Shown here piece by piece: positions 5,601-60,522 of a stretch of DNA of 61,264 bases; position 1 is the first letter of the stretch; the number at the start of each line of letters is the position of its first letter. Location of the stretch: contig CAYNQI010000002.1 of the NCBI GenBank assembly GCA_964399335.1, positions 1 through 61,264 of the forward strand, in the 5' to 3' direction. The DNA is from an uncultured Thermoplasmata archaeon. GTDB taxonomy: Archaea > Thermoplasmatota > Thermoplasmata > Halarchaeoplasmatales > Halarchaeoplasmataceae. The notes under the pieces are model-generated. The model saw only the letters and a list, made by a program, of their open reading frames with translations, made no database searches and was not told where the DNA came from. Both the position numbers and the translations under genes were made by a program.

Positions 5601-7398
5601 TATTGACTAATCTCTGATTTCCTCCGGCGCTACCCAAAGGAAACAGCCCGTGTACCGGTGGGTTCATTTTCCTTTCTTTAGTTTTTTCCGGTCTAGCCAT
5701 CCTTGCGCCGATGGTGGTTGGGGCCTTGCTGCGGATCTTGACGCCCGATAACTCAGAAAGATACTCAATGAGATCCTCCTTTTGACTTTCTCCGTGAAGT
5801 TCAAGATCACCCTCTTCGATTCCAAGTGTGAACAAGAAGGGGCGATAAATCTCGACATATATTTCGTCATCCTTCAATTCATGAGGAAGACCGATATCTT
5901 CTAAAATTTTCTTTATCTCTTCATCGTTAGAAATGTACAAACCTTCATCGATACGTGAATTATCACTTACAAACTCCCTCAATCTCCGTAGTTCCGATAC
6001 CCCCACATAATCCCAGAAATAGATATATTTTGGATGTAAGGGATAGCCTTGTTCTCGACTCAATTCTACGGCTTTTTCAGGAGTCATCTCATCTTCATTC
6101 AATTCCACATCCACTTCCTGGATCCACCATTCGTGACAGTATGCAGCAGGGACCAGTGGATGATTGTTCTCCAAAAATTCGCCATAGGGTATAAGCATCT
6201 CTCCTAGGTCCAGTATCTCTTTGACCTTGCTGGTAACCTCTTTAGCCTCTTCATAATTATCTATCCTCTTTACTTTTCCATTATGGAAAAGTACCGTTGG
6301 CCCTTCGATAGTATCGCAAGGGGTTACCGCTCCAGCCTTACCGGGCCTTTCGATCTTGATCTGGGTTCCCAAGGCCATAAACTCATCGGTCAAAAACATG
6401 ACTGCTGGATTGACAGCTATAGCAGCTAAACCAAGTGTTCTACTCCTCCCATATCTCAATCTGAATCCACCCTTAACACTAGGATGGCCAAATACCGGTC
6501 TACCGGCGATGGTATCTTTTATGTACTTGAAATTTGGAGATATTCCTTCTTGTTTTTCATCGTCTGAGTCTTTTTTACTTGAAGCGAATTTTTCTATATA
6601 CTCGTCGATAAATTCCCATCCCTCGATGTCCAATTTATCTACGTATTTCTTCAATTTTTGTGCTTTAAGACACATCCCCTCGGCAAGGACCAAACATGCC
6701 CCACCTCTTACTCGATTTGTATCTACTCTAGGAAGGTTCCTATTTCCAGATACCTCTTCACTTTCAGTCCCTTCACCACTGATACTTATGGGACAACCTT
6801 TAACGATGACTTCTATCTCTTCAGCAGAAGGAGTGTATTGTAAACTTCTAGTTTTTTTGTAAAGGGGTACTTCTTCTTTGAACCTTTGTACCTCCCCCGT
6901 GGTGGCCTTGTAAGAACCGATGCCCAATTCCCTCCTGACCACATCCGCTATGAGTACACTCATAGCCTGACCGGTACCACCGGCTGAACGTATGGGACCT
7001 GCGAAGGAAAGCTCTACGTAATTTGTCCCGTCGCTGTTGTCTTTGATATCTAATCCTCCGATCCCCTCTAGTGGTGCGACGAGAATACCTTCCGTTAGAA
7101 CAGCCAAACCTATCCTCACAGCATCTTCCAAGCGCTCTTTTACAGATCCCTCATCTCTATTGGCGACTTCCCTTGCTATGTGTATGGATACTTCCTCACG
7201 GTCATATTCTTCACTCAATTCCCTGATCTTTTCGGCAGTATTCTTGACTCCTGTCAATTCCTGAGCTCTCAGGGCCAAATCCTCCGCCATGGGTATTTCT
7301 ACATCTTGTTCCGGATCGTAACCTTTACCTCTAGCTTCCCTAGCTACCGCATATGCCTTTAATGCAGACTGCTCAAGTTCATCAAAATAAGATTTCAT
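2644..7398 (-). CDS. polC: DNA polymerase II (PolD) large subunit DP2, intein-containing
   Basis: FAGPIRSAGGT, GGFRLRYGRSR, RMARPEK, DGTCRYD, HAAKRRN//CDGDED, KRGGKMDAPL, C-terminal Zn finger CTSC...CQC, PIP-like SLDEF end. Confidence 0.97.
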   Translation of the reverse strand: MKSYFDELEQSALKAYAVAREARGKGYDPEQDVEIPMAEDLALRAQELTGVKNTAEKIRELSEEYDREEVSIHIAREVANRDEGSVKERLEDAVRIGLAVLTEGILVAPLEGIGGLDIKDNSDGTNYVELSFAGPIRSAGGTGQAMSVLIADVVRRELGIGSYKATTGEVQRFKEEVPLYKKTRSLQYTPSAEEIEVIVKGCPISISGEGTESEEVSGNRNLPRVDTNRVRGGACLVLAEGMCLKAQKLKKYVDKLDIEGWEFIDEYIEKFASSKKDSDDEKQEGISPNFKYIKDTIAGRPVFGHPSVKGGFRLRYGRSRTLGLAAIAVNPAVMFLTDEFMALGTQIKIERPGKAGAVTPCDTIEGPTVLFHNGKVKRIDNYEEAKEVTSKVKEILDLGEMLIPYGEFLENNHPLVPAAYCHEWWIQEVDVELNEDEMTPEKAVELSREQGYPLHPKYIYFWDYVGVSELRRLREFVSDNSRIDEGLYISNDEEIKKILEDIGLPHELKDDEIYVEIYRPFLFTLGIEEGDLELHGESQKEDLIEYLSELSGVKIRSKAPTTIGARMARPEKTKERKMNPPVHGLFPLGSAGGNQRLVNKAVENGIIEVEVSARRCSKCGKSGAQIRCTCGGRRELLENDMGNGGPKKQKLDMASKYREALRNIGEGGNVKRVKGVKGLMTKEKTPEALEKAILRAKHNIWVFKDGTCRYDMTDLPVTHFKPEEIGLSVDKARKLGYKKDIHGEPLEDSDQMLELKTQDFIASRAAGMYLVKIAKFVDDLLEKYYDIDPFYEAERKEDLIGELVVGLAPHTSGGVLGRLIGYHEGKAGYAHPFFHAAKRRNCFSPDTKLWIKSKGDWTLKPIEEIVEKELTRGDTKYDDFGTEYKGMDNLFVPSISKDGEESLMKVSCVSKHPAPNHYIEFKTRSGRELKVTPQHKMLKAGDKIEFYRAFDLEEGDLIPSPKKIEMEGKENKIDLLKELSKIPDIEETIMIRSISSDFLKSTFRQKFSTNSYLKKLSEETGINKKTISSYIQRCSFPYWIMKKIFGDQTFEILPEEIKLGSKRDEISINRYITIDEDFSKLIGYYTAEGFARKKKGNFYQVTICIPDRDSRDFLKKVYKHKLGINAFEENEWKITASSKLIYFLFNNVLGTGNKAKNKKIPTQILLSNKRCLSSFLSGYFSGDGTTSSKRLDIRASTVSKRLADEIIYSLKRFGINSKLYKEERDPSGIVKEFYEEKGIDHTDKIFTAHIIKITSKNIVKFKKEIGFDTNRKSNSLKDSLENTSVGTQRLMTDNCNIWFDEIVDKKIVKNSDDYVYSLTVNDNHTLVANDLYVGQCDGDEDCIMLLMDGLLNFSQKFLPEKRGGKMDAPLVLTTKINPDEIDSEAHNVDCLWKYPLEFYEKTFEYPNPKELVDMMDIVEERLHTEKQYEGFGYTHETLNISEGPIGSRYTRLDKMTEKMEAQLKVAKMIRAVDATDVVSRVIGAHFIPDLIGNLNKFCVQETRCTSCNRKYRRPPLSGECQCGGNLTLTVHEGSVKKYLRTTIEMTERFDLPPYLKQRIEQLEMQINSLFDNDKVSTPSLDEFC
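3394..4875 (-). mobile_element. Intein (494 aa) with LAGLIDADG homing endonuclease in polC
   Basis: Splits RRN|CDGDED. Begins CFSPDT and ends NHTLVANDLYVGQ before the extein Cys. Block B LKVTPQHK; LAGLIDADG-like motifs LIGYYTAEG and FLSGYFSGDG. Visibly more AT- and Lys-rich than the flanking exteins. Confidence 0.95.
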
Positions 7399-7567
7399 CT
7401 CGTCTGAAAGCGCTAGTTCAGCCGTGTTGACCCCTCCATTTCTGCATTGTGACCTCTGTTCATATTACGATAAAACTCCAAGTAAGATGGTGTTATTAAA
7501 CCTTACTGGTTCGGAATTTTATAGGCCTTTAGAAATTGATAAATAATAATTTAACGTATGTATAACT

Positions 7568-24259: not shown

Positions 24260-25870
24260 TCAATCTTGAACCACTTCTTCATTGATTTTTTCTATCAAAT
24301 ATCTTGAGACTAAAATGTTAGGATTGTTCACGTATAATGCTCCTTTTTCAAAATACTCTCGGGTCTTTTCCATCGTATGTGCTTTTGGTACCACTGGACA
24401 ATGTACATCCATCTCAAGTAATTTTTGAGATACTATGTCTCTATCGATAGTAGATATCACTACCTTAGCATTATTAATTGACGCTTTCTCCCAAGTATAG
24501 TCATGCATCGCATCACCAAAAACATAATTCTCACACTCCTCATCCAACTCTTCCAACTTAACAGGGTCGTCCTCAATTACAAGAAAATCAAAGCCCTTAG
24601 ATCTGCAGATTTCTACTAATTTTTTACCCTGCCGCCCATATCCAAGTATTATGGTATGATTTTTCAGACCAGGTTGGACTACACTTTTATCGTCAATCCT
24701 CTTAGCAGGGTATTTATCGACCATTCGTTTGAAAATTTTCCCAAATATCTGCTCTTCTTTTCTGATTGTGATAGAAGAGATTATCATGGTGACAACTACT
24801 GCTAAGATTATGGCATCGAACAGTTCTAGGATGATTATCCCTAACAAAAATCCCTCGATAGCGATTATAAGTGTGAACTCGCTCATCTGATTCAAACGAA
24901 AACCGGTCAATGCGGATGTCCTGATATCGAAACCCTCCCAAAGTAATATCAGGATAGTAAAGAATGGCTTGATAAATACTACTAGAAGCACCAATACTAA
25001 AGATATAAGAACTGTTTGTAAACTAGGTAAAGTTAAAAGTCCACCCAGCATAGCAAAAAATATAGCTGAGAAAAAATATTTTATGGATTCAACACCGTTA
25101 AGTAGCTCTGTAGATTTAACTGGTTCTATCTTTACAGCTAATCCCGCTATAAATGCCCCAACAGCTATCGAGATACCAAAATATTCACTTATCGAGATGA
25201 ATATTATAAGTAATGAAATACTACTCATAAGAGATAACTCTTCTGAATCACCAGCTAAACTTACTATATATTCAAAGCCATAATTGTATATCAACATGGC
25301 TATGACCAACAAGATAATCCCGATGATCAAGTTTCTTAAAATAGGTATAGGTGTAAGACCTCTAATAGATACTGCACCGAGGAACAATATAAGAAACACA
25401 GCTAAGATATCATCTGTGAATTGAATCGTTTCAGATAACCGACCACGGACCAATCTAGTTTTGCCTTCATGGCCTGCTAATTTAAAACCTACCATGGTAG
25501 AACTGAGGATAACTGCGGCTGCAAAGTAAAGGGAATTTATGTGGTCAAAACCTATCATCAGACCTATGATTATACTTAAAGACCCTATTATCAATATCTG
25601 GATACTTACAGCATATTCACTTTCCCATAACACAGTTTTGATCTCCTTAAAATCTACTGAAACGCCGAAAGCAAATACTAAGAACGCAACACCCCAGCGG
25701 GCCAATTCGAATATGTTTTCTTGCTCGATGAAAAAACCTGCAATTATGCCGGCTAATATGAATATAGGTACCGAAGGTAGCGATAATTTATTAGATATTA
25801 ACAGAAAACCGCCTATGATTATGAATAAGATAGCTAGATCCATGACCGGCTCTGCTAACTCAACGGCCAT
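24260..25870 (-). CDS. CPA2 cation:proton antiporter (Kef-type) with C-terminal RCK/TrkA-N domain
   Basis: Multi-TM N-terminus with GAFIAGL and QMSEF; RCK domain ILGYGRQG and YVFGDA. Confidence 0.88.
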   Translation of the reverse strand: MAVELAEPVMDLAILFIIIGGFLLISNKLSLPSVPIFILAGIIAGFFIEQENIFELARWGVAFLVFAFGVSVDFKEIKTVLWESEYAVSIQILIIGSLSIIIGLMIGFDHINSLYFAAAVILSSTMVGFKLAGHEGKTRLVRGRLSETIQFTDDILAVFLILFLGAVSIRGLTPIPILRNLIIGIILLVIAMLIYNYGFEYIVSLAGDSEELSLMSSISLLIIFISISEYFGISIAVGAFIAGLAVKIEPVKSTELLNGVESIKYFFSAIFFAMLGGLLTLPSLQTVLISLVLVLLVVFIKPFFTILILLWEGFDIRTSALTGFRLNQMSEFTLIIAIEGFLLGIIILELFDAIILAVVVTMIISSITIRKEEQIFGKIFKRMVDKYPAKRIDDKSVVQPGLKNHTIILGYGRQGKKLVEICRSKGFDFLVIEDDPVKLEELDEECENYVFGDAMHDYTWEKASINNAKVVISTIDRDIVSQKLLEMDVHCPVVPKAHTMEKTREYFEKGALYVNNPNILVSRYLIEKINEEVVQD

Positions 25871-27518
25871 CTTTCAGTTCACCTCCAATATCTTGATCGT
25901 TCATATCTTTCAAGTAGCCTTCAACATATTTGAAAAGCTGTAATGCAGATACTTCGTTAATAAGTAATACATGATCTGCACCCATCTCATGTAATATATC
26001 AGACTCTTCCTTCCATTCACATTCTATGAATACTTTGGTACCAGATCCAACATTATCTAATAAAATTGAATTTAAATGAATATCTGAAATAGAACTGAAA
26101 ACAAAACTAGCTTCTTTAAGATTTAAAGCTCTACGTACCTCACCATACCTGAAATCACCATAGATATTGTCTAGACCCTGGCTATCCAATTTTACTATCT
26201 TTTCAGCATCGCTGTCAAGGATTAGTACATGTTCGAAATGCTCTTTTAGTACTGGTACAAGTTTTTCAGCTAAATTGTCGTATCCTATGACCACTGCGTG
26301 TTCACTGTACTTTTTCAGATCAACATCCTTTCTTTCAGTATCTAATCGTTTAAACAAATGTTTCACACGTTCGTAGATCTTATGGTTATTAGCTATGATA
26401 TAAGTAGAAGCACTCATAGTCATAAGAGCCATAAGACTCAGGTAGCCTAGTACTTCTATCTCGATAAAACCCTGAGCTACTGCTAAAGCCCCGACTACCA
26501 GAGAGAACTCGCTGACCTGTATCATATTGATACTGCCTATGAAAGAGGTTTTAACGGAGAAATCCTCTTTATATATCAAATAAAACATTATCAAGAAATT
26601 TCCGAATACGAGGATGACCGAAGCTATGACCGCTTCCTTCCAGTAATAGAAAAGCTCGTCAGCCACTAATCGTAATCCTATGCTAGAGAAGAAAACCAGT
26701 ATGAAAAAATCAGTTATCGGTTTGACACGATCTTCCAATTCTCTACTGTACGGCAATTGAGCAAGACCTAAGCCTGCAAGGAAAGCACCAACTTCTATGG
26801 ACAACTCAAGTCGTTTGGAGGTGTAAATAAATAGAAAGGCCCATGCTATGGTAAATAAGAAAAAAACCTCTTTGTTATCTGCTATCTTTTTAAAAATTTT
26901 AGGAAGTACGTAACGGGATGAAGCTATTGTAACAATACTAATAGCAGCTATCAATATCAGTATTTTGACCACGGTTGTAGCAACTTCTAGTGGTTCGGCT
27001 AAGGTACCTATACCCAATAATGCTAGAGCGATGACTAGATAGATATCTTGGCCGATCAAGACTCCCACATTTATCCTTCCGGGTAACGTTCGGATCTCAT
27101 CTTTATCAGTGAGTACTTTTACTATCACCGGTGTAGCACCGAATATCGTACACAAACCTATCACGAATGCCTGCCATAATGGGAAACCAAGGAGATACGC
27201 CACTAAAAAGGCCAGGGATTGCTGTAATAGGATCTGACTCCCGGCTATATTTACTATGGGTCGAAATATTTCTTTGATCTCATCGAAGTGCATCTTGATC
27301 CCTAGAAGGAAAAGAAGGAATCCTAAGCCGAGACTGGACATGATCTCTACTAATCCTTCTTCAACAACTATATTGAGGCCGACGGGTCCTAGGATAACGC
27401 CCGTTAAAATATACGAAACTATCGTAGGCTGCCCTAATCTATGTGCTATATAACCAACTAAGGTAGCTGCAACGAAAATTATAGCAAAGTTGGTCGGATA
27501 AGCTATAGCACTAGACAT
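25860..27518 (-). CDS. CPA2 cation:proton antiporter (Kef-type) with degenerate RCK domain
   Basis: YILTGVILGP, GAFLAGLGLA, FFSSIG, QVSEFSLVV; RCK region VIGYDNLA and IYGDF. Start at ATG 27518. Confidence 0.88.
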   Translation of the reverse strand: MSSAIAYPTNFAIIFVAATLVGYIAHRLGQPTIVSYILTGVILGPVGLNIVVEEGLVEIMSSLGLGFLLFLLGIKMHFDEIKEIFRPIVNIAGSQILLQQSLAFLVAYLLGFPLWQAFVIGLCTIFGATPVIVKVLTDKDEIRTLPGRINVGVLIGQDIYLVIALALLGIGTLAEPLEVATTVVKILILIAAISIVTIASSRYVLPKIFKKIADNKEVFFLFTIAWAFLFIYTSKRLELSIEVGAFLAGLGLAQLPYSRELEDRVKPITDFFILVFFSSIGLRLVADELFYYWKEAVIASVILVFGNFLIMFYLIYKEDFSVKTSFIGSINMIQVSEFSLVVGALAVAQGFIEIEVLGYLSLMALMTMSASTYIIANNHKIYERVKHLFKRLDTERKDVDLKKYSEHAVVIGYDNLAEKLVPVLKEHFEHVLILDSDAEKIVKLDSQGLDNIYGDFRYGEVRRALNLKEASFVFSSISDIHLNSILLDNVGSGTKVFIECEWKEESDILHEMGADHVLLINEVSALQLFKYVEGYLKDMNDQDIGGELKDGR

Positions 27519-27673
27519 ATTTTCCCTCTGATGATCTCGGATCTTGGTTTGGGTGTCAATCATTTACTAACTTAATAAAAATTTCCAAAGTGTCATGATG
27601 TCTAAAAATGGTGTATATAACTGTTTAAAAAAAGTGGAAAAAGTTTATTCCTATAGATGATTTTATAATATAC

Positions 27674-51971: not shown

Positions 51972-52194
51972 AGTCCCTACAATATGGAATCAGTTCGATT
52001 TTCTCTTCCAGTATAAGATCTTACAGATTTGAAAACAGTGTTTTTTAATCTGACTTACCTTTACTTAGCAAAAATGTTAAATCATATGTACCTATTTTAA
52101 CCAAAGTGTATAAAAAAAGTATGAGAAAGTGTAAAGCAGATATTTATACTCCTTGCCATTTGGCTCAAATACCGGAAAAATAGGTGGCGAAAAT

Positions 52195-53481
52195 ATGGCA
52201 AAAGAAGGGTTTAATGCGTTTAAGATGGCTCAGAAGCAGTTCGATAGGATAGCTGATAAACTTGACCTAGATGAAGGTACAAGAAAAATCCTAAGAAAAC
52301 CGATACGAGAATATCACTTTAATATACCTGTAAAGATGGACGATGGCTCCACCCAGGTCTTTGAGGCTTTTAGGATCCAGCATAACGATGCTAGAGGACC
52401 TTGCAAAGGAGGTATCAGGTTCCATCCACAAGAGACAGTTGATACTGTAAGGGCTTTAGCGATGTGGATGACTTGGAAAACAGCAGTAGCAAATATCCCA
52501 TTGGGTGGAGGAAAAGGAGGAGTCATATGTGATCCTCACGATCTATCTGATAGAGAGCAGGAACGGATATGCAGAGGCTACGTAAGAGAGATATATGACG
52601 AATTGGGACCTGATAAAGACATACCCGCTCCGGACGTTATGACAACTGCACAGCATATGTTGTGGATGATGGATGAATATGAGAAGATCAACGGATCCAA
52701 GAATCCAGGTGTGATAACTGGTAAACCAGTTGATATGGGAGGTTCGTTGGGACGTACAGAAGCTACTGGTTATGGTGTTATATACGTTCTGAGAGAAGTT
52801 CTAAAAGAGATGGATCTTGATATAAACGAGATGACCGCTTCGGTTCAAGGTTTCGGAAATGTTGCCCAGCATGCTGTTGAGTTGTTCATTGAATATGGCG
52901 GTACAGTTGTGTCTGTATCCTGCTGGGACCAAGAAGACAGCTGTGCTTACAGTTACTTTAGGGAAGATGGGATCGATCTGGAGGAACTCAGAGGGATAAC
53001 TGACAGGTTTGGTTCTATAGATAAAAAGAAAGCTAAAGAGAAAGGGTACACGAGGAGATCTGGTGAAGATTGGATAAAGGACGAAGTAGATATACTGATT
53101 CCAGCGGCTTTAGAGAACGCTATCACCGAGGATAACGTAGAAGATATCAAAGATAGTGTGAGGTTGATAATCTCTGGAGCGAACGGACCTATAACCCCTG
53201 AAGCTGATGAAATGCTAGAAGAAATGGACATAGTTGTCATACCAGACTTCCTAGCCAATGCCGGCGGTGTTACTTGCAGTTACTTCGAACAGGTACAGAG
53301 CAATCAGAACTACTATTGGCCCAAGGAGGAAGTTCTGGGAAAATTGGATAACATGATGACCGATGCCTTCTACGAGGTATGGGAACTCGCTAAACGGAAA
53401 AATATCCGTGTTCGTGATGCAGCTTATATGATATCTATAGATAGAGTAGCTGAAGCCTGCAAAAAACGCGGTTGGGTATAG
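52195..53481 (+). CDS. gdhA: Glutamate dehydrogenase (Glu/Leu/Phe/Val family)
   Basis: RGPCKGGIRFHP, MTWK, GGGKGG, DIPAPDV, ITGKP..GGS.GR, ATGYG, QGFGNV, GANGP, PDFLANAGGV.SYFE. Confidence 0.94.
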   Translation: MAKEGFNAFKMAQKQFDRIADKLDLDEGTRKILRKPIREYHFNIPVKMDDGSTQVFEAFRIQHNDARGPCKGGIRFHPQETVDTVRALAMWMTWKTAVANIPLGGGKGGVICDPHDLSDREQERICRGYVREIYDELGPDKDIPAPDVMTTAQHMLWMMDEYEKINGSKNPGVITGKPVDMGGSLGRTEATGYGVIYVLREVLKEMDLDINEMTASVQGFGNVAQHAVELFIEYGGTVVSVSCWDQEDSCAYSYFREDGIDLEELRGITDRFGSIDKKKAKEKGYTRRSGEDWIKDEVDILIPAALENAITEDNVEDIKDSVRLIISGANGPITPEADEMLEEMDIVVIPDFLANAGGVTCSYFEQVQSNQNYYWPKEEVLGKLDNMMTDAFYEVWELAKRKNIRVRDAAYMISIDRVAEACKKRGWV

Positions 53482-53490
53482 TGGAGATAG

Positions 53491-56478
53491 ATGAAGAATC
53501 GAGAAGACGAGATAAAAAAAACTATCGAGGAGATAACCGGGATAACCCCAAAAACAGAGAAGGAAGATAAGGGAGATGAATATCTTAGGGCATCCTATGT
53601 AGAAAATGTCCTGATCATTTCCCCTCCCTTCGATTATTTTTTATTCGAGGAAGAAGGTAGGTTAGAAGAACTCTTTGACGATGTATTTGGAGGTAGGGAA
53701 TTTGGTCCAGTACCAAATGTGATCCATGTGGAAAATGGTGGTGAAGGAAAGGATGTCTTGGATGACACCAAGATAGACCTGATAATAGTTTTCAGTGAAC
53801 CCATGGATATGGAACTGTTGAAATTCTCTGGTATGGTCAAGGATGATCATCCTGATATCCCCATAGTTTTGATCAGCAACGATACAGTAGAGATCAAAGA
53901 GATACTAAGAGAAGACAGTAAAGATACCATCGAAGAAGCTTTCACATGGTACGGGGACGGTAGGATAATCCTCAGTATTATCCAGTATATCGAAGATAAG
54001 AAAAATCTTGAAAACGAGGTACTTTCGAAAGATGGAAAGGCTATATTGCTGATAGAGGATTCTATCCAGTTCTATTCAAAATATCTGCCGTTGATTTATG
54101 AAGAGATATGGCATTACCTCGACTCTGTAATCGAAGACGACCTACCAAAAAAGATCAAGAGTAAAAGATACTGGAGTAAACCTTTCATTCTATTCGCTTC
54201 CGATATACGGAAGGGGAAGGATCTTTATAATAGATATCACGATAATTTGATATGTATAGTGACTGATAATCACTGTGGTTCAGACAACGAAGAACATCCG
54301 GGACTCGATTTTGCTCTACAAGTCGAGAAAGAGAGAGAAGACCTTTCTATTTTAGTTCAATCCTCGGAACCTATAGAAGGGTTCCCTGAAGATAGCGATA
54401 TAGAATTCATTTTAAAGGACTCTCCTGTACTCACTTCCAAGATCGGTGAGTTCGTTAGGAAAAATATAGGACCGTTAGAGCTAATTTTTAAAAATGAAGT
54501 CGGAACTGAATTGGCGGTCGTAGATGGTCTTAAAGGACTCGAAGAAGCTTTATGGAATATCGATAACGAGATCTTAGAAAAGTATCTCATGGAAAGTCAG
54601 ATAACTACCTGGTTAAGAGCTAGAGCTGAGTATGTCTTAGCTGAGGAGATAGAAAACCTCTCAAAGGAGGGAGAGAAAGAAGAGTTGAAAAGCCAGCTTA
54701 TCAACATCTTAGAAGAGCACAGATACAGATATCATCAAGGCACGATAACGAATTTCGAGAGAAGAAGGGAGAATCACTATAGCAAGATCAGCAGGATCGG
54801 AAAAGGTGCATTAGGTGGGAAAGCAAGAGGATTAGCTTTCATGGCTAAGATACTGTCAAAATATGTCACAGACGAGATGTTCGATGGCTTACGTATCACA
54901 GTCCCTAGAAGTGTGGTACTATCAACAGAGGTTTATGATAAATTTCTCGAGAAAAATGATCTTATTAATGATAACATCGATCTGATGTCCGATCAAAGGA
55001 TATCATCTAAATTCATCGATGGTTCCTTGTCAGCGACTGTATTAGGCGATCTTAGATCCTTTGTTAGAAACACGAAAACACCTCTTATCGTTCGTTCTTC
55101 TGGTTTATTGGAAGATTCATTGATGCAGCCCTTTGCCGGTATCTATTCTTCAGTATTACTTCCTAATGACTCATGGGAAACGGATCTTAGGTTCAAAGAA
55201 GTCTGTAACGCCATCAAACATGTCTATGCATCGGCATTCTTCGAAAAAGCAAGGACCTACCTGATGTCCACACCTAAGAAATTAGGGGATGAAAAGATGG
55301 CGGTGATGATTCAGGAAGTGGTCGGAAAAAAACATGGTAAATATTTTTATCCCGATATATCTGGTGTGGCTAAATCGTACAATCATTATCCTTCTGGTCC
55401 ATGCAGTTCTGAAGATGGTATAGTTTATCTTGCCCTTGGTCTTGGTAAAGCAGTGGTTGACGGGAGCAACACTTTCTGTTTCTGCCCAGAACATCCCAAA
55501 ATTCCTTTATCGGGTACCCCAAAAGATTTTATGAAGTACTCTCAGACCGACTTGTATGCAGTTGATCTTGAATCCGTTTACAAACGGATAAAAAAGGACG
55601 AAGAAACATCACTCGTTAAATTGAAACTAGACGAAGTAAAGAAACATGGTGTACTCGATAAGACTGTATCTACTTTTTCCCTGAGGAACGATAGGTTATA
55701 TCCAGGTACTGCCCATGAGGGTCCTATGGTGGTCGATTTTGGTCCCATAGTGAAATATAATTCAGTACCTCTCGCAAAGGCTTTGAAGATGCTGTTGAAG
55801 GTAAGTAGGATAGCATTAGGTTATCCCGTTGAGATAGAATTCGCAGTAAATCTAAACAAAGGAAAAAATGAACCCGCGGAACTAGTCATACTCCAGATAA
55901 GAAGTATGATCACGACCGAGAGTTTTTTAGATATGGATATCGATGAATATAAGGAAGATGAACTAATCTGTAAAAGTCAGAACGCCATAGGATATGGAGT
56001 GATCGGGGATATAAGAGACGTGATTTATATCAAATATGACGAGTTCGACTTCAAGGATTCTCAGAGCGTTGTTGAAAAACTTAGAAGATTAAACAAACGT
56101 TTGATGGATGATAAAAGACCTTATATTTTGGTCGGTCCAGGGAGATGGGGATCCTCTGATGAGTGGTTGGGTATCCCGGTCTTATGGAGTGATATTGCCG
56201 GGGCAAGGATCATAGTAGAAACCACGACTGCAGGTAGGCACATCGATCCTTCCCAAGGCTCTCATTTCTTCCATGACATGATCTCTTCTCAAGCTGGATA
56301 TATGATAGCGGATTCAGAAAATATTGATTGGGACTGGTTGAGATCTCAACAGATAGTAGAAAAACTAGAAGATATTGTCCATGTTAGAACCAAAGAACCA
56401 TTAGAAGTCATGATAGATGGAAAAGAGGGTAAAGGTGTCATCAAAAAGTCTAAAAAGGATGTTGAAGAAGATAATTGA
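53491..56478 (+). CDS. PEP-synthase/PPDK nucleotide-binding (ATP-grasp) domain protein with N-terminal receiver-like domains
   Basis: REC-like segments (ILLIEDS, CIVTD, ILVQSS), GGKARGLAF, VRSSGLLEDS, FAGIYSS, IQEVVG, LQIR, GPGRWGS, QGSHFF. No pyruvate-binding TIM barrel. Confidence 0.85.
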   Translation: MKNREDEIKKTIEEITGITPKTEKEDKGDEYLRASYVENVLIISPPFDYFLFEEEGRLEELFDDVFGGREFGPVPNVIHVENGGEGKDVLDDTKIDLIIVFSEPMDMELLKFSGMVKDDHPDIPIVLISNDTVEIKEILREDSKDTIEEAFTWYGDGRIILSIIQYIEDKKNLENEVLSKDGKAILLIEDSIQFYSKYLPLIYEEIWHYLDSVIEDDLPKKIKSKRYWSKPFILFASDIRKGKDLYNRYHDNLICIVTDNHCGSDNEEHPGLDFALQVEKEREDLSILVQSSEPIEGFPEDSDIEFILKDSPVLTSKIGEFVRKNIGPLELIFKNEVGTELAVVDGLKGLEEALWNIDNEILEKYLMESQITTWLRARAEYVLAEEIENLSKEGEKEELKSQLINILEEHRYRYHQGTITNFERRRENHYSKISRIGKGALGGKARGLAFMAKILSKYVTDEMFDGLRITVPRSVVLSTEVYDKFLEKNDLINDNIDLMSDQRISSKFIDGSLSATVLGDLRSFVRNTKTPLIVRSSGLLEDSLMQPFAGIYSSVLLPNDSWETDLRFKEVCNAIKHVYASAFFEKARTYLMSTPKKLGDEKMAVMIQEVVGKKHGKYFYPDISGVAKSYNHYPSGPCSSEDGIVYLALGLGKAVVDGSNTFCFCPEHPKIPLSGTPKDFMKYSQTDLYAVDLESVYKRIKKDEETSLVKLKLDEVKKHGVLDKTVSTFSLRNDRLYPGTAHEGPMVVDFGPIVKYNSVPLAKALKMLLKVSRIALGYPVEIEFAVNLNKGKNEPAELVILQIRSMITTESFLDMDIDEYKEDELICKSQNAIGYGVIGDIRDVIYIKYDEFDFKDSQSVVEKLRRLNKRLMDDKRPYILVGPGRWGSSDEWLGIPVLWSDIAGARIIVETTTAGRHIDPSQGSHFFHDMISSQAGYMIADSENIDWDWLRSQQIVEKLEDIVHVRTKEPLEVMIDGKEGKGVIKKSKKDVEEDN

Positions 56479-56538
56479 TGCAGTCTATAGAACAAAACTA
56501 TTTAGCGAGGTTAATCATAGATATATAAGGTAAATATC

Positions 56539-59500
56539 ATGGATGAGGATGTTAACGTCGAAAATAGAATTGAAAAGGAAATCGAGGATAAGATAACCCC
56601 TAGGAAGGAATTGGATGAACTTCAAGAACGGGTGAAAGAACTCAACTGTATCTATGGTATATCCGAGATAGTTAACGATGACAATTTATCATTAGAAGAA
56701 GCTTTGCAAAAGATCGTGGAACTACTTCCCCCATCTTGGCAGTATGAAGATATCGCTTGTGCTAGGATAAAATTGAACGGTGAAGAGTATAAGACGGATG
56801 ATTTTCGAGAAACGGAGTGGAAACAGCAGAGTATAATAGAAGTTGGGGGGGAGATTAAAGGGTCTCTAGAAGTATGCTATCTAGAGGAAAAACCCGAGAT
56901 AGATGAAGGACCGTTTCTCATCGAAGAACGGAGACTTCTGAACACTGTTTCTGATCTTTTAGGAAGGTTCATAGAAGAAAGAAGGGTGAAGAAACAGATC
57001 TCAGATGAAAAACAGGATTGGGAAGTTATCATAGACCTGTTGATGAGGACTGATCCTAAGACCCTTCTCAGGATGACCCGAAAGATGGTGTATTACCTTT
57101 ACAGACATGAGAACGAACAGATCTCGATGCTTTTGAATGATGTGTGTCCCATCGAACCCGATTCTGACACACCAAAATGGTGTGGGATAAATATGCCAAA
57201 TCCTAAACAGGATCTAGAGTCATTGAAAGAGATCCAGAAAAGTGTGTTTCAGATTGCAAAAGATAGTTTAGAACCGGAAGAGATATCTGAACTCTTTCAT
57301 AGATGGTTGAAGGAAGATAAAGCTAGACCGTTACTACTTGCTTCTCAAAGGAAGGGTATACCTTTGGTTGAGATAACAGATGAGCTCAATCGTTTTTTCG
57401 AAAAAGCTGATGCAAATACAGCTCTAGCTCCCGAGGATAAGATGGCTATCAGAACAGCCCTTATCCAAAGGTTTTTCACCGATAGATTGGAGTTCATCAA
57501 CATCGCAAAAAATTACATCCAATTGGATGATTTTGTCTCTTTATTGAAACGGCTCATCGGTCCTGCCCAAGGTGCTGGTAAAGTAGGTGGTAAAACCTCT
57601 GGGGCATATCTAGCCTATAAGATCCTTCAAAGGGAGAAGGATAGACACCCTGATCTCAAAGACATCAAGTTCCCCAAAAGTTGGTATCTTACGTCGGATT
57701 CTATGCTAGACCTGATACATTATAACGACTTGGATGAAGTTATACACATAAAATATCTCGATCCAGATAGGATCAGACAAGAACAGCCATTCCTCGAACA
57801 GATCATGAAGAATGCTGTATTCACTTCAGAGATCGTTGAGGGATTTAAAAAGATCCTCAGGGATATAGACGATAATCCGATAATAGTAAGATCCTCTAGT
57901 CTCCTTGAAGACAACTTCGGAGCAGCCTTTTCAGGCAAATACAAGAGTCTCTTTTTATCAAACAAAGGTTCTGAAGAGGAAAGATTGAATGCTCTCATGG
58001 AAGCGGTCGCCGAGGTGTATGCGTCTACTTTTGGTCCGGATCCCATAGAGTATCGTCGAGAAAAAGGGATGTTAGATTTCAGTGAAGAGATGGGGATACT
58101 TATTCAAGAGGTCGTGGGTAAAAGGGTAGGTCCATATTATGTTCCAGCCTATGCGGGTGTTGCTTTCAGTAAGAACGAGTTCAGATGGTCACCTCGTATC
58201 AATAGAGATGATGGGATAATCAGATTAGTACCCGGATTGGGAACTAGAGCAGTTGATAGAGTGGGTAATGACTATCCTATCTTGGTTTCTCCTAAAAGAC
58301 CTGAACTCAGGGTGAATACACTGGTTGAAGAGCGGATAAAGTACTCTCCACGATACATGGATGTCATAAATCTTGAAACTGGAGCTATAGAAACCGTTGA
58401 TGCCATAGAGATATACAAGAAATATGGAGAGAAATTTCCGTTCCTTGACAAGATCGTGTCGGTGTATGAGGATGGTGAACTTAGAAAACCTAAAAGCTTT
58501 TTATTCGATCCTGAAGAAGAGGATATGATAGTAACCTTCGATAAGCTGTTCGAAGAGACTGACTTCTTACTTTTGATGTGTAAGATAATGGATATACTCG
58601 AAAGTAAGATAGAGACACCTGTCGATGTTGAATTCGCTCATGATGGAGATAATCTTTACATCCTTCAGTGTCGCCCTCAAAGCCAGACTCAACAGATAAA
58701 ACGTAAACCTATCCCCATGGACATAAAGAACAAGGATAAACTGTTCTCCAGTAAAAAATTTGTCACCACCGGTCACCTAGAGAACATTGAATATATAGTG
58801 TATGTTTCTCCAGAAGGATACGCAAGTCTCGATAGCGAACGTAAGATGAGAAAAGTAGCTGATATAGTTGGAGAATTGAACAACAGTCTCCCTGAGAAAA
58901 GGTTCATATTGATGGGACCCGGGAGATGGGGAAGCCGGGGAGATATCACTCTTGGGGTACCGGTGAAGTACAGGGATATCAACAATACTTCATTGATAGT
59001 AGAGATAGCTAAAGAAAAAGGTGGATATTTACCAGAATTATCTTTTGGAACTCACTTTTTCCAGGATCTAGTTGAGGCCGATATAAAATACTTACCTCTT
59101 TATCCAGATGAGTCCGGAAACATCTTCAACGAAGAATTGTTGTATAGGTCAGAGAATCGACTGACCGAGATACTTCCTGGACAGGAGGATTTCGAAGAAG
59201 TTATCCGGTTAGTCCGGGTCAGTGATATCAGTTCAGGCGGTTCCTTAGATGTTGTCATGGACGGCGAAGCCAACGAAGCTCTAGCTTATCTAAGGTCTCC
59301 AGACCATTGGGAATGGAGGATGAATAAAGTGGAAACCATGGCAGATGAGTTGGACCCGGATATATACGGGGTTAAAGGCCTATATATCGTTGGGAGCACA
59401 AAAGAAGGTACAGCTTGTTCTAGAAGCGACATTGATCTTATAGTCCATTATACAGGAGAGCAAGAAAAGAAGGAAAAGTTGGAGAACTGGTTCTATGGAT

Positions 59501-59676
59501 GGGATAAAAAATTAGTTGAAGAAAATAAGGATAGGACGGGTATTGAAGTGGATAAAATATTAGACATCCATTTCATAACTGATGAGGATATAAAAGAAAA
59601 TACCTCATGGGCTTCACATATAAATTCTAGATATAGATCAGCCCGGGAGATCCCCTTGGATGGTAGTGATTCATGA
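56539..59676 (+). CDS. GAF-like + PEP-synthase ATP-grasp + C-terminal nucleotidyltransferase fusion protein
   Basis: N-terminal ERVKELNCIYGIS...LPPSWQY...DEGPFL sensory-type domain; GGKTSG, VRSSSLLEDN, FSGKYKS, LQCRPQ, GPGRWGS, FGTHFF; Pol-beta NTase motif GS(952)-x10-DID...DIH. Confidence 0.85.
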   Translation: MDEDVNVENRIEKEIEDKITPRKELDELQERVKELNCIYGISEIVNDDNLSLEEALQKIVELLPPSWQYEDIACARIKLNGEEYKTDDFRETEWKQQSIIEVGGEIKGSLEVCYLEEKPEIDEGPFLIEERRLLNTVSDLLGRFIEERRVKKQISDEKQDWEVIIDLLMRTDPKTLLRMTRKMVYYLYRHENEQISMLLNDVCPIEPDSDTPKWCGINMPNPKQDLESLKEIQKSVFQIAKDSLEPEEISELFHRWLKEDKARPLLLASQRKGIPLVEITDELNRFFEKADANTALAPEDKMAIRTALIQRFFTDRLEFINIAKNYIQLDDFVSLLKRLIGPAQGAGKVGGKTSGAYLAYKILQREKDRHPDLKDIKFPKSWYLTSDSMLDLIHYNDLDEVIHIKYLDPDRIRQEQPFLEQIMKNAVFTSEIVEGFKKILRDIDDNPIIVRSSSLLEDNFGAAFSGKYKSLFLSNKGSEEERLNALMEAVAEVYASTFGPDPIEYRREKGMLDFSEEMGILIQEVVGKRVGPYYVPAYAGVAFSKNEFRWSPRINRDDGIIRLVPGLGTRAVDRVGNDYPILVSPKRPELRVNTLVEERIKYSPRYMDVINLETGAIETVDAIEIYKKYGEKFPFLDKIVSVYEDGELRKPKSFLFDPEEEDMIVTFDKLFEETDFLLLMCKIMDILESKIETPVDVEFAHDGDNLYILQCRPQSQTQQIKRKPIPMDIKNKDKLFSSKKFVTTGHLENIEYIVYVSPEGYASLDSERKMRKVADIVGELNNSLPEKRFILMGPGRWGSRGDITLGVPVKYRDINNTSLIVEIAKEKGGYLPELSFGTHFFQDLVEADIKYLPLYPDESGNIFNEELLYRSENRLTEILPGQEDFEEVIRLVRVSDISSGGSLDVVMDGEANEALAYLRSPDHWEWRMNKVETMADELDPDIYGVKGLYIVGSTKEGTACSRSDIDLIVHYTGEQEKKEKLENWFYGWDKKLVEENKDRTGIEVDKILDIHFITDEDIKENTSWASHINSRYRSAREIPLDGSDS

Positions 59677-60522
59677 ATCGACTACAGTTCTACGTGCATC
59701 CTTTAAGTTTTCTGTATCGAATATGACCAATGCAAGCCCATCTCCGGATGTTACGCCTGTAAAACTATAAGTATCGCCGATGCTGCATCTCCAATTTCCC
59801 GTCAACTCGACTGTTTCATGAACATGACCATGCAGTGTGAGAAATGGCTGCTCTTTTTTTATAAAATTCCTGATAGCTATACTTCCTACATGAACATCCA
59901 AGGGTACATGGTCCACTTCCTTCCCGTCTAGATCAGCTCTGTCCAGATCGGTATCATATGGAGGTGCGTGGAACAGATATATAGTATTTTTCGGATCTGA
60001 TGCTCGTTTTATATCCACTATATCTTTTTCGATAGTAGAGTAAGTGATCTCATTTTTATTTATCTTTACAGTTCTAGTTCCTTCCTCAGGAGCAACGACT
60101 CCTACATCAATAAATCTTGAAACATCATATTTTTCCCAGTCTTTAAGATGAAAAGGTGTGGGAGGTATAAAGCTGTACCCACATATATTATATCCCTTAA
60201 AATCTGCACATTTCTGGTTGACGTAATCTATGTGTCCTTTTTCGTCAAACCCATTTAATATATCTTCGAATACCCTTGGATCATCGTTACCCATGATCAC
60301 AAAACATCTCATTTCTTTATCTGACTCCTCTCGGATATTCTGAATGGGTTTGATGAGATTGTTTGATAAAAAATCCTTCACTCTATTTTTATCTCTAATG
60401 AAGCTCGGTAGTAGATCACCACCAAGGAAAAGAGCATCGGGATCTATCTTATCTAGCACTTCTATCAAGAGTTTATATTTTTTTTCTTTTCCATGTAGGT
60501 CCGAGGTAAATATACACTTCAA
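59671..60522 (-). CDS. Metallophosphoesterase (calcineurin-like/Icc-related)
   Basis: SDLHG, GGDL, MGNDD, FHAPP, LHGHVH. Confidence 0.88.
   Translation of the reverse strand: MKCIFTSDLHGKEKKYKLLIEVLDKIDPDALFLGGDLLPSFIRDKNRVKDFLSNNLIKPIQNIREESDKEMRCFVIMGNDDPRVFEDILNGFDEKGHIDYVNQKCADFKGYNICGYSFIPPTPFHLKDWEKYDVSRFIDVGVVAPEEGTRTVKINKNEITYSTIEKDIVDIKRASDPKNTIYLFHAPPYDTDLDRADLDGKEVDHVPLDVHVGSIAIRNFIKKEQPFLTLHGHVHETVELTGNWRCSIGDTYSFTGVTSGDGLALVIFDTENLKDARRTVVDS

Follow-up and report, generated by a model that had tools for sequence, protein, structure and literature searches.

Glutamate dehydrogenase (GDH) stands at the junction of carbon and nitrogen metabolism, and its regulation in prokaryotes is, to our knowledge, exerted mostly through transcription or through small protein partners. 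Nucleotidylylation of protein tyrosines is carried out by MNT enzymes and by GlnE and GlnD, which belong to the wider polymerase beta (Pol-beta) superfamily. In the present work, we analysed a stretch of 61,264 nucleotides from an uncultured Thermoplasmata archaeon (contig CAYNQI010000002.1; hereafter, the window), in which the gene gdhA is followed by two genes coding for large proteins, A and B, and by a convergent metallophosphoesterase gene. A and B share an ATP-grasp domain of the PPDK_N family and, after it, a domain here called the C-module; A carries, in addition, a pair of N-terminal receiver-like domains (REC-REC), and B carries a GAF-like domain and a C-terminal nucleotidyltransferase. 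The cluster is a conserved functional module and not a chance neighbourhood: its core is represented by an insert-bearing GDH (subfamily G1) and B, with A and the metallophosphoesterase as frequent extras. The literature searched yielded no description of it.

Like B, GlnE and GlnD join a Pol-beta-superfamily nucleotidyltransferase to sensor domains and are tied to a central enzyme of ammonium assimilation; their reversible nucleotidylylation of protein tyrosines is the best functional analogy for this locus. B differs from them in having a minimal nucleotidyltransferase of about 100 residues, of the MNT type, together with a PPDK-type ATP-grasp and the C-module; moreover, the presumed target is GDH, and not glutamine synthetase or PII, and the candidate for the reversal is a separate metallophosphoesterase. 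No domain specific to GlnE or GlnD was found in the Pfam or NCBIfam scans, which retrieved only the generic NTP_transf_2, Polbeta and MTPAP-like families. The parallel with GlnD/GlnE drawn in an earlier reading of this DNA (the sequence-only reading) holds for the Pol-beta-type fold of the nucleotidyltransferase but not for family membership, and is an analogy only.

In HEPN-MNT systems the MNT enzyme AMPylates a tyrosine of its partner protein. This enzyme and kanamycin nucleotidyltransferase share with B the minimal fold and the G-S ... D-x-D ... D motif, whereas the nucleotidyltransferase of B is the C-terminal domain of a 1045-residue protein and has no HEPN partner. Phosphoenolpyruvate (PEP) synthase (PPS), pyruvate phosphate dikinase (PPDK) and rifampin phosphotransferase (RPH) possess, as A and B do, a PPDK_N domain with Lys, Arg, D-x-E and Q-x-R at PPDK-like spacing; unlike these enzymes, A and B have no detectable phosphohistidine domain, no TIM barrel and no rifampin-binding domain, and harbor instead the C-module (GxGRWGS and SxG[ST]HFF), sensors and a nucleotidyltransferase. 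Enzyme I of the phosphotransferase system (EI) is a precedent for a phosphohistidine of the PPS/PPDK family that passes its phosphoryl group to a protein (HPr), but it uses PEP and a TIM barrel, it has no ATP-grasp, and homology of its His domain with the C-module went undetected (hhalign, 1%). The N-terminal region of A is similar to the tandem receivers of PleD, one canonical (E-D, D, S, K) and one degenerate; it differs in the output (ATP-grasp and C-module, not GGDEF), in the reversed order of the active and the degenerate receiver, and in that no histidine kinase was found nearby. Lastly, AceK works in a comparable way, being a dedicated enzyme that switches a branch-point dehydrogenase at a residue of the substrate/coenzyme site; this is an analogy only, since AceK has no sequence or fold relationship with A and B and is bifunctional in a single domain. 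The component folds are known, but the way they are combined in A and B, the C-module and the association with GDH are not.

Distribution and linkage of gdh, A and B

Three homologues of B, about 62-63% identical to the window protein and located on contigs with differing flanks, are all part of a gdh-A-B cluster. For a wider (forward) scan, an alignment of B was searched against one genome per GTDB species; at least 600 matching stretches were retrieved, and the best 80 loci, belonging to about ten Thermoplasmatota and about seventy bacterial metagenome-assembled genomes (MAGs), were compared with the window proteins by tblastn. The bacterial carriers belong to Acidobacteriota, Planctomycetota, Ignavibacteria, Bacteroidota, Calditrichota, Zixibacteria, Cloacimonadota, Eisenbacteria, Myxococcota, Bacillota and others, and their B proteins are full length, with a sequence identity of 42-46%. 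Nine loci could not be evaluated owing to a contig end. A G1 GDH gene lies beside B in 66 of the 71 testable loci, in 64 of them directly upstream and on the same strand; the organization is gdh-A-B in 49 loci, gdh-B in 12 and gdh-?-B in three, with gdh nearby in another orientation in two; five loci harbor no G1 GDH gene. The GDH of the 66 loci always belongs to the same subtype and is 54-80% identical to that of the window.

The reverse scan started from the GDH: metagenome contigs were selected solely for a degenerate DNA pattern encoding the GDH peptide ITD[RK]FGxIDK. All of the 80 loci returned carry a G1-type GDH, and A and/or B were found immediately downstream of it in 49 of the 54 contigs that were testable, that is, with a complete gdh and at least about 600 nt after it. 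According to these data, the association of this GDH with A and/or B is of about 90% in both directions and spans both domains of life. B is the universal partner of the G1 GDH. The linkage of gdh with such proteins in bacteria, which the sequence-only reading had mentioned, is therefore borne out by both scans. The same reading considered a horizontal transfer of the module plausible, and the patchy distribution over many bacterial phyla and Thermoplasmatota, together with a GDH identity of 63-68% across the two domains of life, agrees with this idea; given the unremarkable composition of the window, any such transfer would not be recent. A few of the taxonomic labels may be binning errors, most carriers being MAGs, an example being L016, a locus labelled "Planctomycetota" in which B has 55% identity with the window protein. 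Nearly all carriers are uncultured, and the public names of the proteins are generic ("PEP/pyruvate-binding domain-containing protein", "nucleotidyltransferase domain-containing protein", "pyruvate, water dikinase"); a search for a cultured host with a Bacteroidales B retrieved almost only MAG proteins with such generic names, and no model organism was identified.

No further metabolic gene is conserved in the neighbourhood of the cluster in the loci examined. In 41 of 67 testable loci, B is immediately followed by the metallophosphoesterase gene, in convergent orientation in 36 and on the same strand in five; this gene is also present in L004, L006 and L211; a minimal gdh-B-phosphoesterase form occurs in one 4.1-Mb genome record. 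The window protein matches no NCBIfam family and no close PDB sequence. In L135 (1680-3848), a metallophosphoesterase gene directly follows that of the G1 GDH, with A and B absent from the 2.5 kb available. The convergent metallophosphoesterase gene of the window and the C-module shared by A and B had both escaped the sequence-only reading.

Moreover, three proteins of 1523-1654 residues (P0241, P0242 and P0243) each have two C-module matches, and the two of them that were scanned with Pfam (P0241 and P0243) have two PPDK_N domains each; these fusions of a short A with B suggest that A and B act as one unit. The arrangement of A and B is operon-like elsewhere too, with a 4-nt overlap in L004.

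Many bacterial loci harbor a second pair. Its GDH is NADP-specific (778 bits with NCBIfam PRK09414, whose cut-off is 536), and the partner is a long A-like protein with the REC-REC, ATP-grasp and C-module organization, 31-35% identical to A. The two genes are adjacent in L015, L022, L024 (14125-18546), L034, L055, L066, L073 and L083. Proteins with ATP-grasp and C-module are thus tied to GDHs twice over, a sign that two GDHs with opposite physiological directions may each be served by one of two paralogous modules. In L004, belonging to one Thermoplasmatota lineage, glnA (2649-3986, minus strand) is divergent from the gene for the NADP-GDH (4226-5566, within 4226-6986 on the plus strand), and downstream of the latter comes the G1 gdh-A-B-phosphoesterase cluster. 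The region is a compact nitrogen-assimilation neighbourhood.

Sequence features of the GDH, A and B

The best PDB match of the window GDH is the Thermococcus enzyme 1EUZ (E 6.6e-129, motifs aligned), and its identity with the Thermococcus and Pyrococcus GDHs is about 55%. It possesses both ELFV domains and the GGGKGG catalytic-lysine motif, in keeping with the close match to solved GDHs. The score of 497 bits against NCBIfam GdhA_Arch is under the equivalog cut-off of 750, which fits a separate subfamily. In the alignment with 1EUZ, the segment SCWDQEDSCAYSY takes the place of the canonical SDSxGxIY after the second strand of the dinucleotide-binding fold, with 5+1 extra residues; in Rossmann folds, this position reads the 2' group of the adenosine ribose of the coenzyme. 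The G1 GDHs share in this loop the signature S[CS]WDQxDxxx[SA]Y: out of 123 sequences, W244 is conserved in 123, D245 in 114, Q246 in 113, D248 in 110 and Y252 in 117. The distant second GDHs found in some of these loci keep the canonical motif and have no insertion. Hence, the insertion is a signature of the B-linked subfamily and not a quirk of one protein. It had already been pointed out from the sequence as an unusual insert and a possible docking site; it is real and conserved across the linked subfamily, and residues 243-254 may represent a docking or a modification site. The near-invariant Y252, located in a surface loop at the coenzyme site, would be a natural candidate target for a tyrosine-nucleotidylylating enzyme.

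The genes gdhA and A are spaced by 9 nt, A and B by 60 nt. Proteins A and B are paralogous: their alignment of about 529 residues, with 29% identity and an E of 3e-44, spans the ATP-grasp and the C-module. The conservation of their residues was evaluated on 43 archaeal and 70 bacterial B proteins and on 44 archaeal, 48 bacterial short and 10 bacterial long A or A-like proteins. AlphaFold models were built on 43-44 homologues, with a mean predicted local distance difference test score (pLDDT) of 73.3 for A and 72.6 for B, and compared with the PDB by Foldseek.

The A family comprises 1331 matches, the top 120 of which are Thermoplasmatota proteins with 46-97% identity. The best Foldseek matches of the N-terminal region of A (pLDDT of about 90) are the REC-REC of PleD (E 5e-8) and 3LUF/3MF4. 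REC1 lacks both the acidic pair and the acceptor Asp in the A1 consensus, and with them the feature set of a receiver. As for REC2, E189, D259, S291 and K309 are invariant and D190 nearly so in the 44 archaeal A proteins, and none of the five varies in the 10 bacterial long A-like proteins. The model of the ATP-grasp of A is poor. No variation is seen at K444, R535, E541/D542, Q608, E781/E783 and Q802/R804 in the 44 Thermoplasmatota sequences, and the bacterial short and long A proteins keep these residues, except that E783 and R804 each differ in one of the 10 long ones. K444 is covered by 19 of the 48 short-A alignments, and a K is present in all 19.

In bacteria, the A protein encoded between gdh and B is short (about 560-590 residues) and consists of ATP-grasp and C-module only; the receiver pair on an A in this position is a feature of Thermoplasmatota. 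In the SG8-52-3 lineage (L006 6679-8784, L007 7110-9239), A has about 701-709 residues and aligns to residues 340-976 of the window A, most of the receiver region being absent, which suggests that the receiver input was gained or lost within Thermoplasmatota. The linker that precedes the ATP-grasp in P0387, a relative of 1557 residues, matches Pfam DUF5752 (residues 909-1006, E 1e-5), a family that may give a name to the region between REC2 and the ATP-grasp of A-type proteins.

In B, the GAF-like domain matches the GAF of NifA (8JRC, E 0.044, prob 1.00, TMt 0.48) and that of a sensor kinase (6OAP), a weak similarity at the fold level; C37, Y39, Y114 and E130 hardly vary among the archaeal and bacterial sequences. 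The helical region that follows contains many invariant columns in Thermoplasmatota, and W161, D172, R181 and R311 are kept in bacteria too. The ATP-grasp is structurally similar to RPH (5HV3, E 6.5e-12) and PPDK (1KBL, E 2.6e-6). Its residues K352, R451, D696-x-E698 and Q710-x-R712 are invariant in 70 out of 70 bacterial and in the 43 archaeal proteins, with a spacing that corresponds to that of K22, R92, D321/E323 and Q335/R337 of PPDK; the entries of the K22A and R337A mutants of PPDK occur among the Foldseek matches of B. The C-module residues G793/G795/R796/W797/G798 and S835/G837/T838/H839/F840/F841 are likewise present in 70 out of 70 bacterial sequences. The nucleotidyltransferase scores 27-29 bits with NTP_transf_2 (cut-off 21) and matches the MNT antitoxins 8XEH/8XEO and 2RFF in Foldseek with a probability of 0.99 and an E of only about 0.04-0.06. 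It has the features of a minimal Pol-beta enzyme, namely G-S-x(9-11)-D-x-D plus a third Asp in an alpha/beta core of about 100 residues, with G952-S953, D964-x-D966 and D1009 invariant or nearly so. The (near-)invariance of the residues of the ATP-grasp, of the His and Gly loop of the C-module and of the nucleotidyltransferase shows that A and B are enzymes under strong purifying selection and not decayed paralogues.

The Pfam scans of A and B retrieved neither PF00391 (PEP-utilizers) nor PF02896 (PEP-utilizers_C), and the lengths left after the C-module leave no room for a PEP/pyruvate TIM barrel. An ordinary PPS or PPDK can thus be rejected, the NCBIfam scores being far under the family cut-offs as well. 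The proteins are not RPHs either: NCBIfam RIF_Ptrans_rph gives 20-33 bits against a cut-off of 999, in the ATP-grasp only, and the Foldseek match of B to RPH is confined to about 370-460 aligned ATP-grasp columns. No DNA-binding domain was found in A or B by Pfam. These results agree with most of the sequence-only reading, which had correctly placed gdhA and the two spaced paralogues, had assigned to both of them a PEP-synthase ATP-grasp with no pyruvate barrel, had excluded an ordinary PPS/PPDK, and had seen receiver-like domains on one of them, of which REC2 is intact and REC1 degenerate. Of the two domains it attributed to B, the C-terminal nucleotidyltransferase is confirmed by Pfam, and the GAF-like one has the weak fold-level match given above. 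The phosphotransfer part that it assumed came out weaker, in that what follows the ATP-grasp could not be recognised as a phosphohistidine domain of the PEP-utilizers type.

The C-module, which occupies this position, has about 170 residues and two sharp motifs, GPGRWGS and SxG[ST]HFF, whose His is present in 128 out of 128 sequences of the bacterial sets and invariant in A (H925). It matches no Pfam family at E<=1 (window segments) or at E<=10 (24 diverse members, alignment A3); a profile search of the PDB sequences retrieved no PPS, PPDK or EI, nor anything relevant to dikinases; and hhalign gives a probability of 0.1% against E. coli PpsA and of 1% against an alignment of the PpsA/PtsI/PtsP swivel domains. 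Consequently, Pfam, the PDB profile search and hhalign do not support a divergent PEP-utilizers phosphohistidine (swivel, PF00391) domain, and the C-module appears from its sequence to be a new protein domain. A full scan of 1.84 billion representatives yielded 2054 clusters at 50% identity (563 at E<=1e-30). In the eight proteins scanned for domains, it always follows PPDK_N, and in the other long matches it lies at or near the C-terminus. In the models, the His follows a strand and a low-confidence loop and opens a predicted helix; in our reading of the secondary structure, this strand-loop-helix context would resemble the PPDK arrangement. As far as we know, every characterised PPDK_N enzyme passes the beta-phosphate of ATP to a His on the adjoining domain; the invariant His of the C-module is therefore the obvious candidate for a phosphoryl carrier.

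Possible roles of the module

The reading that we tentatively favour, at somewhat less than an even chance, is that the module is a dedicated post-translational control system for the G1 GDH. It is favoured by the forward and reverse synteny, the co-varying GDH loop, the sensor domains, the invariant catalytic residues and the A::B fusions, as well as by the operon-like spacing, the MNT-like nucleotidyltransferase and the lack of any other conserved metabolic gene; GAF-like and REC-REC domains are typical of regulators rather than of pathway enzymes. In principle, B would sense a metabolite through its GAF-like domain and use ATP in the PPDK-type ATP-grasp, the invariant His of the C-module being the likely phosphoryl carrier, and its MNT-type nucleotidyltransferase would act on GDH, either alone or with the ATP-grasp unit. 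The best candidate for the target would be the GDH loop SCWDQxDxxxSY, with its near-invariant Tyr, at the site where the adenosine ribose is read. A would pair with B and, in the window archaeon, would add a phosphorylatable receiver input, and the metallophosphoesterase, a candidate reversing enzyme, would remove the modification.

Some observations weigh against dedicated control. The confidence of the A and B models is moderate (pLDDT of about 73), and the GAF assignment is weak; about 7-9% of the testable loci break the linkage, with B alone in L035 and L040 and a G1 GDH without A or B in L097, L098, L135, L163 and L167; no GDH::A or GDH::B fusion was found among the seven longest or most unusual proteins scanned out of the best 150 C-module proteins. 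Furthermore, the closest structural relative of the ATP-grasp in Foldseek, RPH, is a small-molecule enzyme, and, the C-module being unlinked to the swivel domain in the Pfam, PDB and hhalign searches, a phosphocarrier role of its His is a conjecture.

The similarity to RPH, together with weak NCBIfam matches to PigC, RedH and Rph, also speaks for an alternative that we consider rather unlikely, according to which A and B constitute a small-molecule dikinase/nucleotidyltransferase, comparable to RPH, PigC/RedH or the multi-subunit phenylphosphate synthase, that would transfer phosphoryl or nucleotidyl groups to a metabolite linked to the GDH reaction (e.g., a 2-oxoglutarate, glutamate or nicotinamide-cofactor derivative), which GDH would supply or consume. 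All the characterised PPDK_N enzymes of which we are aware act on small molecules or glucans, minimal Pol-beta nucleotidyltransferases modify small molecules too (e.g., kanamycin nucleotidyltransferase), and the large conserved helical region of B could bind a substrate; the short A, however, with its ATP-grasp and C-module only, offers no obvious substrate site, the GAF-like and REC-REC inputs are regulator-type domains, and the cluster is accompanied by no further conserved pathway enzyme. A purely metabolic link would also leave unexplained the surface insertion of GDH that co-varies with B. This insertion, and the more than 90% two-way linkage to one GDH subtype in many phyla and with unrelated flanks, which is hard to account for with no direct functional tie, make it quite improbable that A and B serve nitrogen/energy signalling in general (e.g., through a nucleotide messenger or a transcription control), being merely co-transcribed with gdh and not acting directly on the GDH. 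The sensor domains and the nucleotidyltransferase could in principle make a signalling nucleotide, glnA and the NADP-GDH gene lie near some loci, and B occurs alone in a few genomes; against a transcription control stands the lack of a DNA-binding domain in A and B.

The same synteny and co-variation apply to a non-covalent regulation, where B, with or without A, would bind the GDH hexamer at the loop and tune its activity according to ATP/AMP and to the GAF ligand, similarly to the regulatory subunits of Thermus GDH or to PII-type regulators; the ATP-grasp, the His and the nucleotidyltransferase would then modify only A and B themselves. The presence of sensor domains fits this scheme, and the receiver of A could take an intramolecular phosphotransfer, but two complete invariant catalytic centres and a frequent phosphoesterase exceed the needs of a ligand sensor, and we regard it as distinctly unlikely, even though the data do not separate non-covalent from covalent control.

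If dedicated control is the actual role of the module, an enzyme-encoded control of GDH would represent the missing counterpart of the adenylylation cascade of glutamine synthetase. It would also provide a first function for a family of thousands of proteins (more than 6800 matches for B, 2054 clusters for the C-module), would define a new protein domain and would possibly extend the PPDK-type ATP-grasp chemistry to protein substrates. In its boldest form, which we consider doubtful, A and B would be the first PPDK-type ATP-grasp enzymes to act on a protein: by means of a new His-bearing domain and of the MNT-type nucleotidyltransferase, they would covalently turn GDH on and off at the coenzyme-site loop, in a GlnE-like cascade that is reversed by the metallophosphoesterase, common to many archaea and bacteria and overlooked until now, and the sister pair of NADP-GDH and long A-like protein would control the opposite direction. 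A chemistry with no precedent in the PPDK_N family has a substantial chance, albeit a minority one. Identities within the module are of 42-84% over about 1040 residues, and several of the carrier phyla are named or annotated as protein- and amino-acid-degrading lineages. A reversible in vivo inactivation of GDH, with no mechanism given, was reportedly described in Bacteroides fragilis in the 1980s.

Features of the locus and gene neighbourhood

The coordinates of the features of the locus are collected in Table 1. The mechanical ORF of gdhA opens at TTG 52153, and public gene calls for the GDH cluster differ between 442 residues (TTG 52153) and 428 residues (ATG 52195). Since homologues align from residue 1 of the 428-residue form and a Shine-Dalgarno-like GGTGG (52183-52187) lies ahead of the ATG, the start is most likely at 52195.

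Table 1. Features of the gdh-A-B locus, with positions in the window.
Feature	Position	Strand	Basis or remark
Double winged helix-turn-helix (HTH) regulator gene (Lrp/AsnC/LysM-like), 344 aa	50937..51971	+	Pfam HTH_24/HTH_20/HTH_AsnC-type
AT-rich TATA-like element ATATTTATAC, ~45-55 nt 5' of the gdhA ATG	52140..52149	+	read from sequence; putative promoter
gdhA, hexameric-type GDH, insert-bearing subfamily (G1)	52195..53481	+	Pfam ELFV_dehydrog_N 190 bits, ELFV_dehydrog 241 bits
GDH subfamily-specific insertion, coenzyme-binding domain, residues 243-254 CWDQEDSCAYSY	52921..52956	+	replaces SDSxGxIY of 1EUZ
ORF A, 995 aa: REC-REC, linker, PPDK_N ATP-grasp, C-module	53491..56478	+	Pfam, paralogy, AlphaFold/Foldseek
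A REC1, degenerate receiver-like, residues ~37-175	53599..54015	+	AlphaFold and Foldseek (PleD, 3LUF)
A REC2, receiver with intact phospho-acceptor set, residues ~183-330	54037..54480	+	residue conservation
A ATP-grasp (PPDK_N, Pfam PF01326), residues 440-810	54799..55935	+	E 6.3e-37
A C-module, GPGRWGS and SQGSHFFHD motifs	55954..56460	+	paralogy with B; H925 invariant
ORF B, 1045 aa: GAF-like, helical region, PPDK_N ATP-grasp, C-module, MNT-type nucleotidyltransferase	56539..59676	+	
B GAF-like sensor domain, residues ~27-152	56617..56994	+	Foldseek
B conserved helical region, residues ~158-340, no family match	57010..57558	+	column conservation; low-to-medium model confidence
B ATP-grasp (PPDK_N), residues 348-729	57571..58728	+	Pfam E 1.1e-52
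B C-module, GPGRWGS ... SFGTHFFQD	58729..59298	+	same domain as in A
B C-terminal minimal nucleotidyltransferase (Pol-beta/MNT type)	59305..59658	+	Pfam NTP_transf_2 (PF01909), residues 943-991
Calcineurin-like metallophosphoesterase, convergent with B, 6-nt 3'-end overlap	59671..60522	-	Pfam Metallophos (PF00149) 36.1 bits, cut-off 21.5

The double winged-HTH gene is found directly upstream of gdh only in the Thermoplasmatota loci (49-69% identity) and is absent from the bacterial ones; its match to the NCBIfam LysM-regulator family is weak (27.7 bits, cut-off 180). The protein is a candidate amino-acid-responsive, lineage-specific transcription regulator of the operon.

The window is a piece of chromosomal DNA, and its closest protein matches belong to "Candidatus Saliniplasma" (order Halarchaeoplasmatales, Thermoplasmatota), with 84% identity. 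The neighbouring genes are housekeeping ones, coding for MCM and a Nop5-like protein (read from the translations), Cdc6 and the large subunit of PolD (Pfam), and Asn/Asp-tRNA synthetases (one read from the translation, one with Pfam tRNA-synt_2). Considering these neighbours and the unremarkable GC content and skew across the cluster, a genomic island or a recent transfer was rejected. An anti-phage defence system was rejected as well, PADLOC giving only weak matches of 15-22 bits to the generic nucleotidyltransferase motif; among the neighbours scanned, none has a HEPN domain. No ORF of the window has the G1/G2-box pattern of histidine kinases, according to a motif heuristic that is not exhaustive, and Pfam found no such kinase among the translations around the cluster and ten large ORFs; it may be encoded elsewhere. 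No RNA element of the window passes the Rfam gathering thresholds.

Two further observations concern other genes of the window. An intein bearing a homing-endonuclease domain of the LAGLIDADG type (Pfam Intein_splicing, LAGLIDADG_3) interrupts the gene for the large subunit (DP2) of DNA polymerase D (2647-7464, minus strand). Moreover, two tandem paralogous genes for Na+/H+ exchangers (24263-27563, minus strand), each with a C-terminal TrkA_N (RCK) domain, fit a haloalkaliphilic host.

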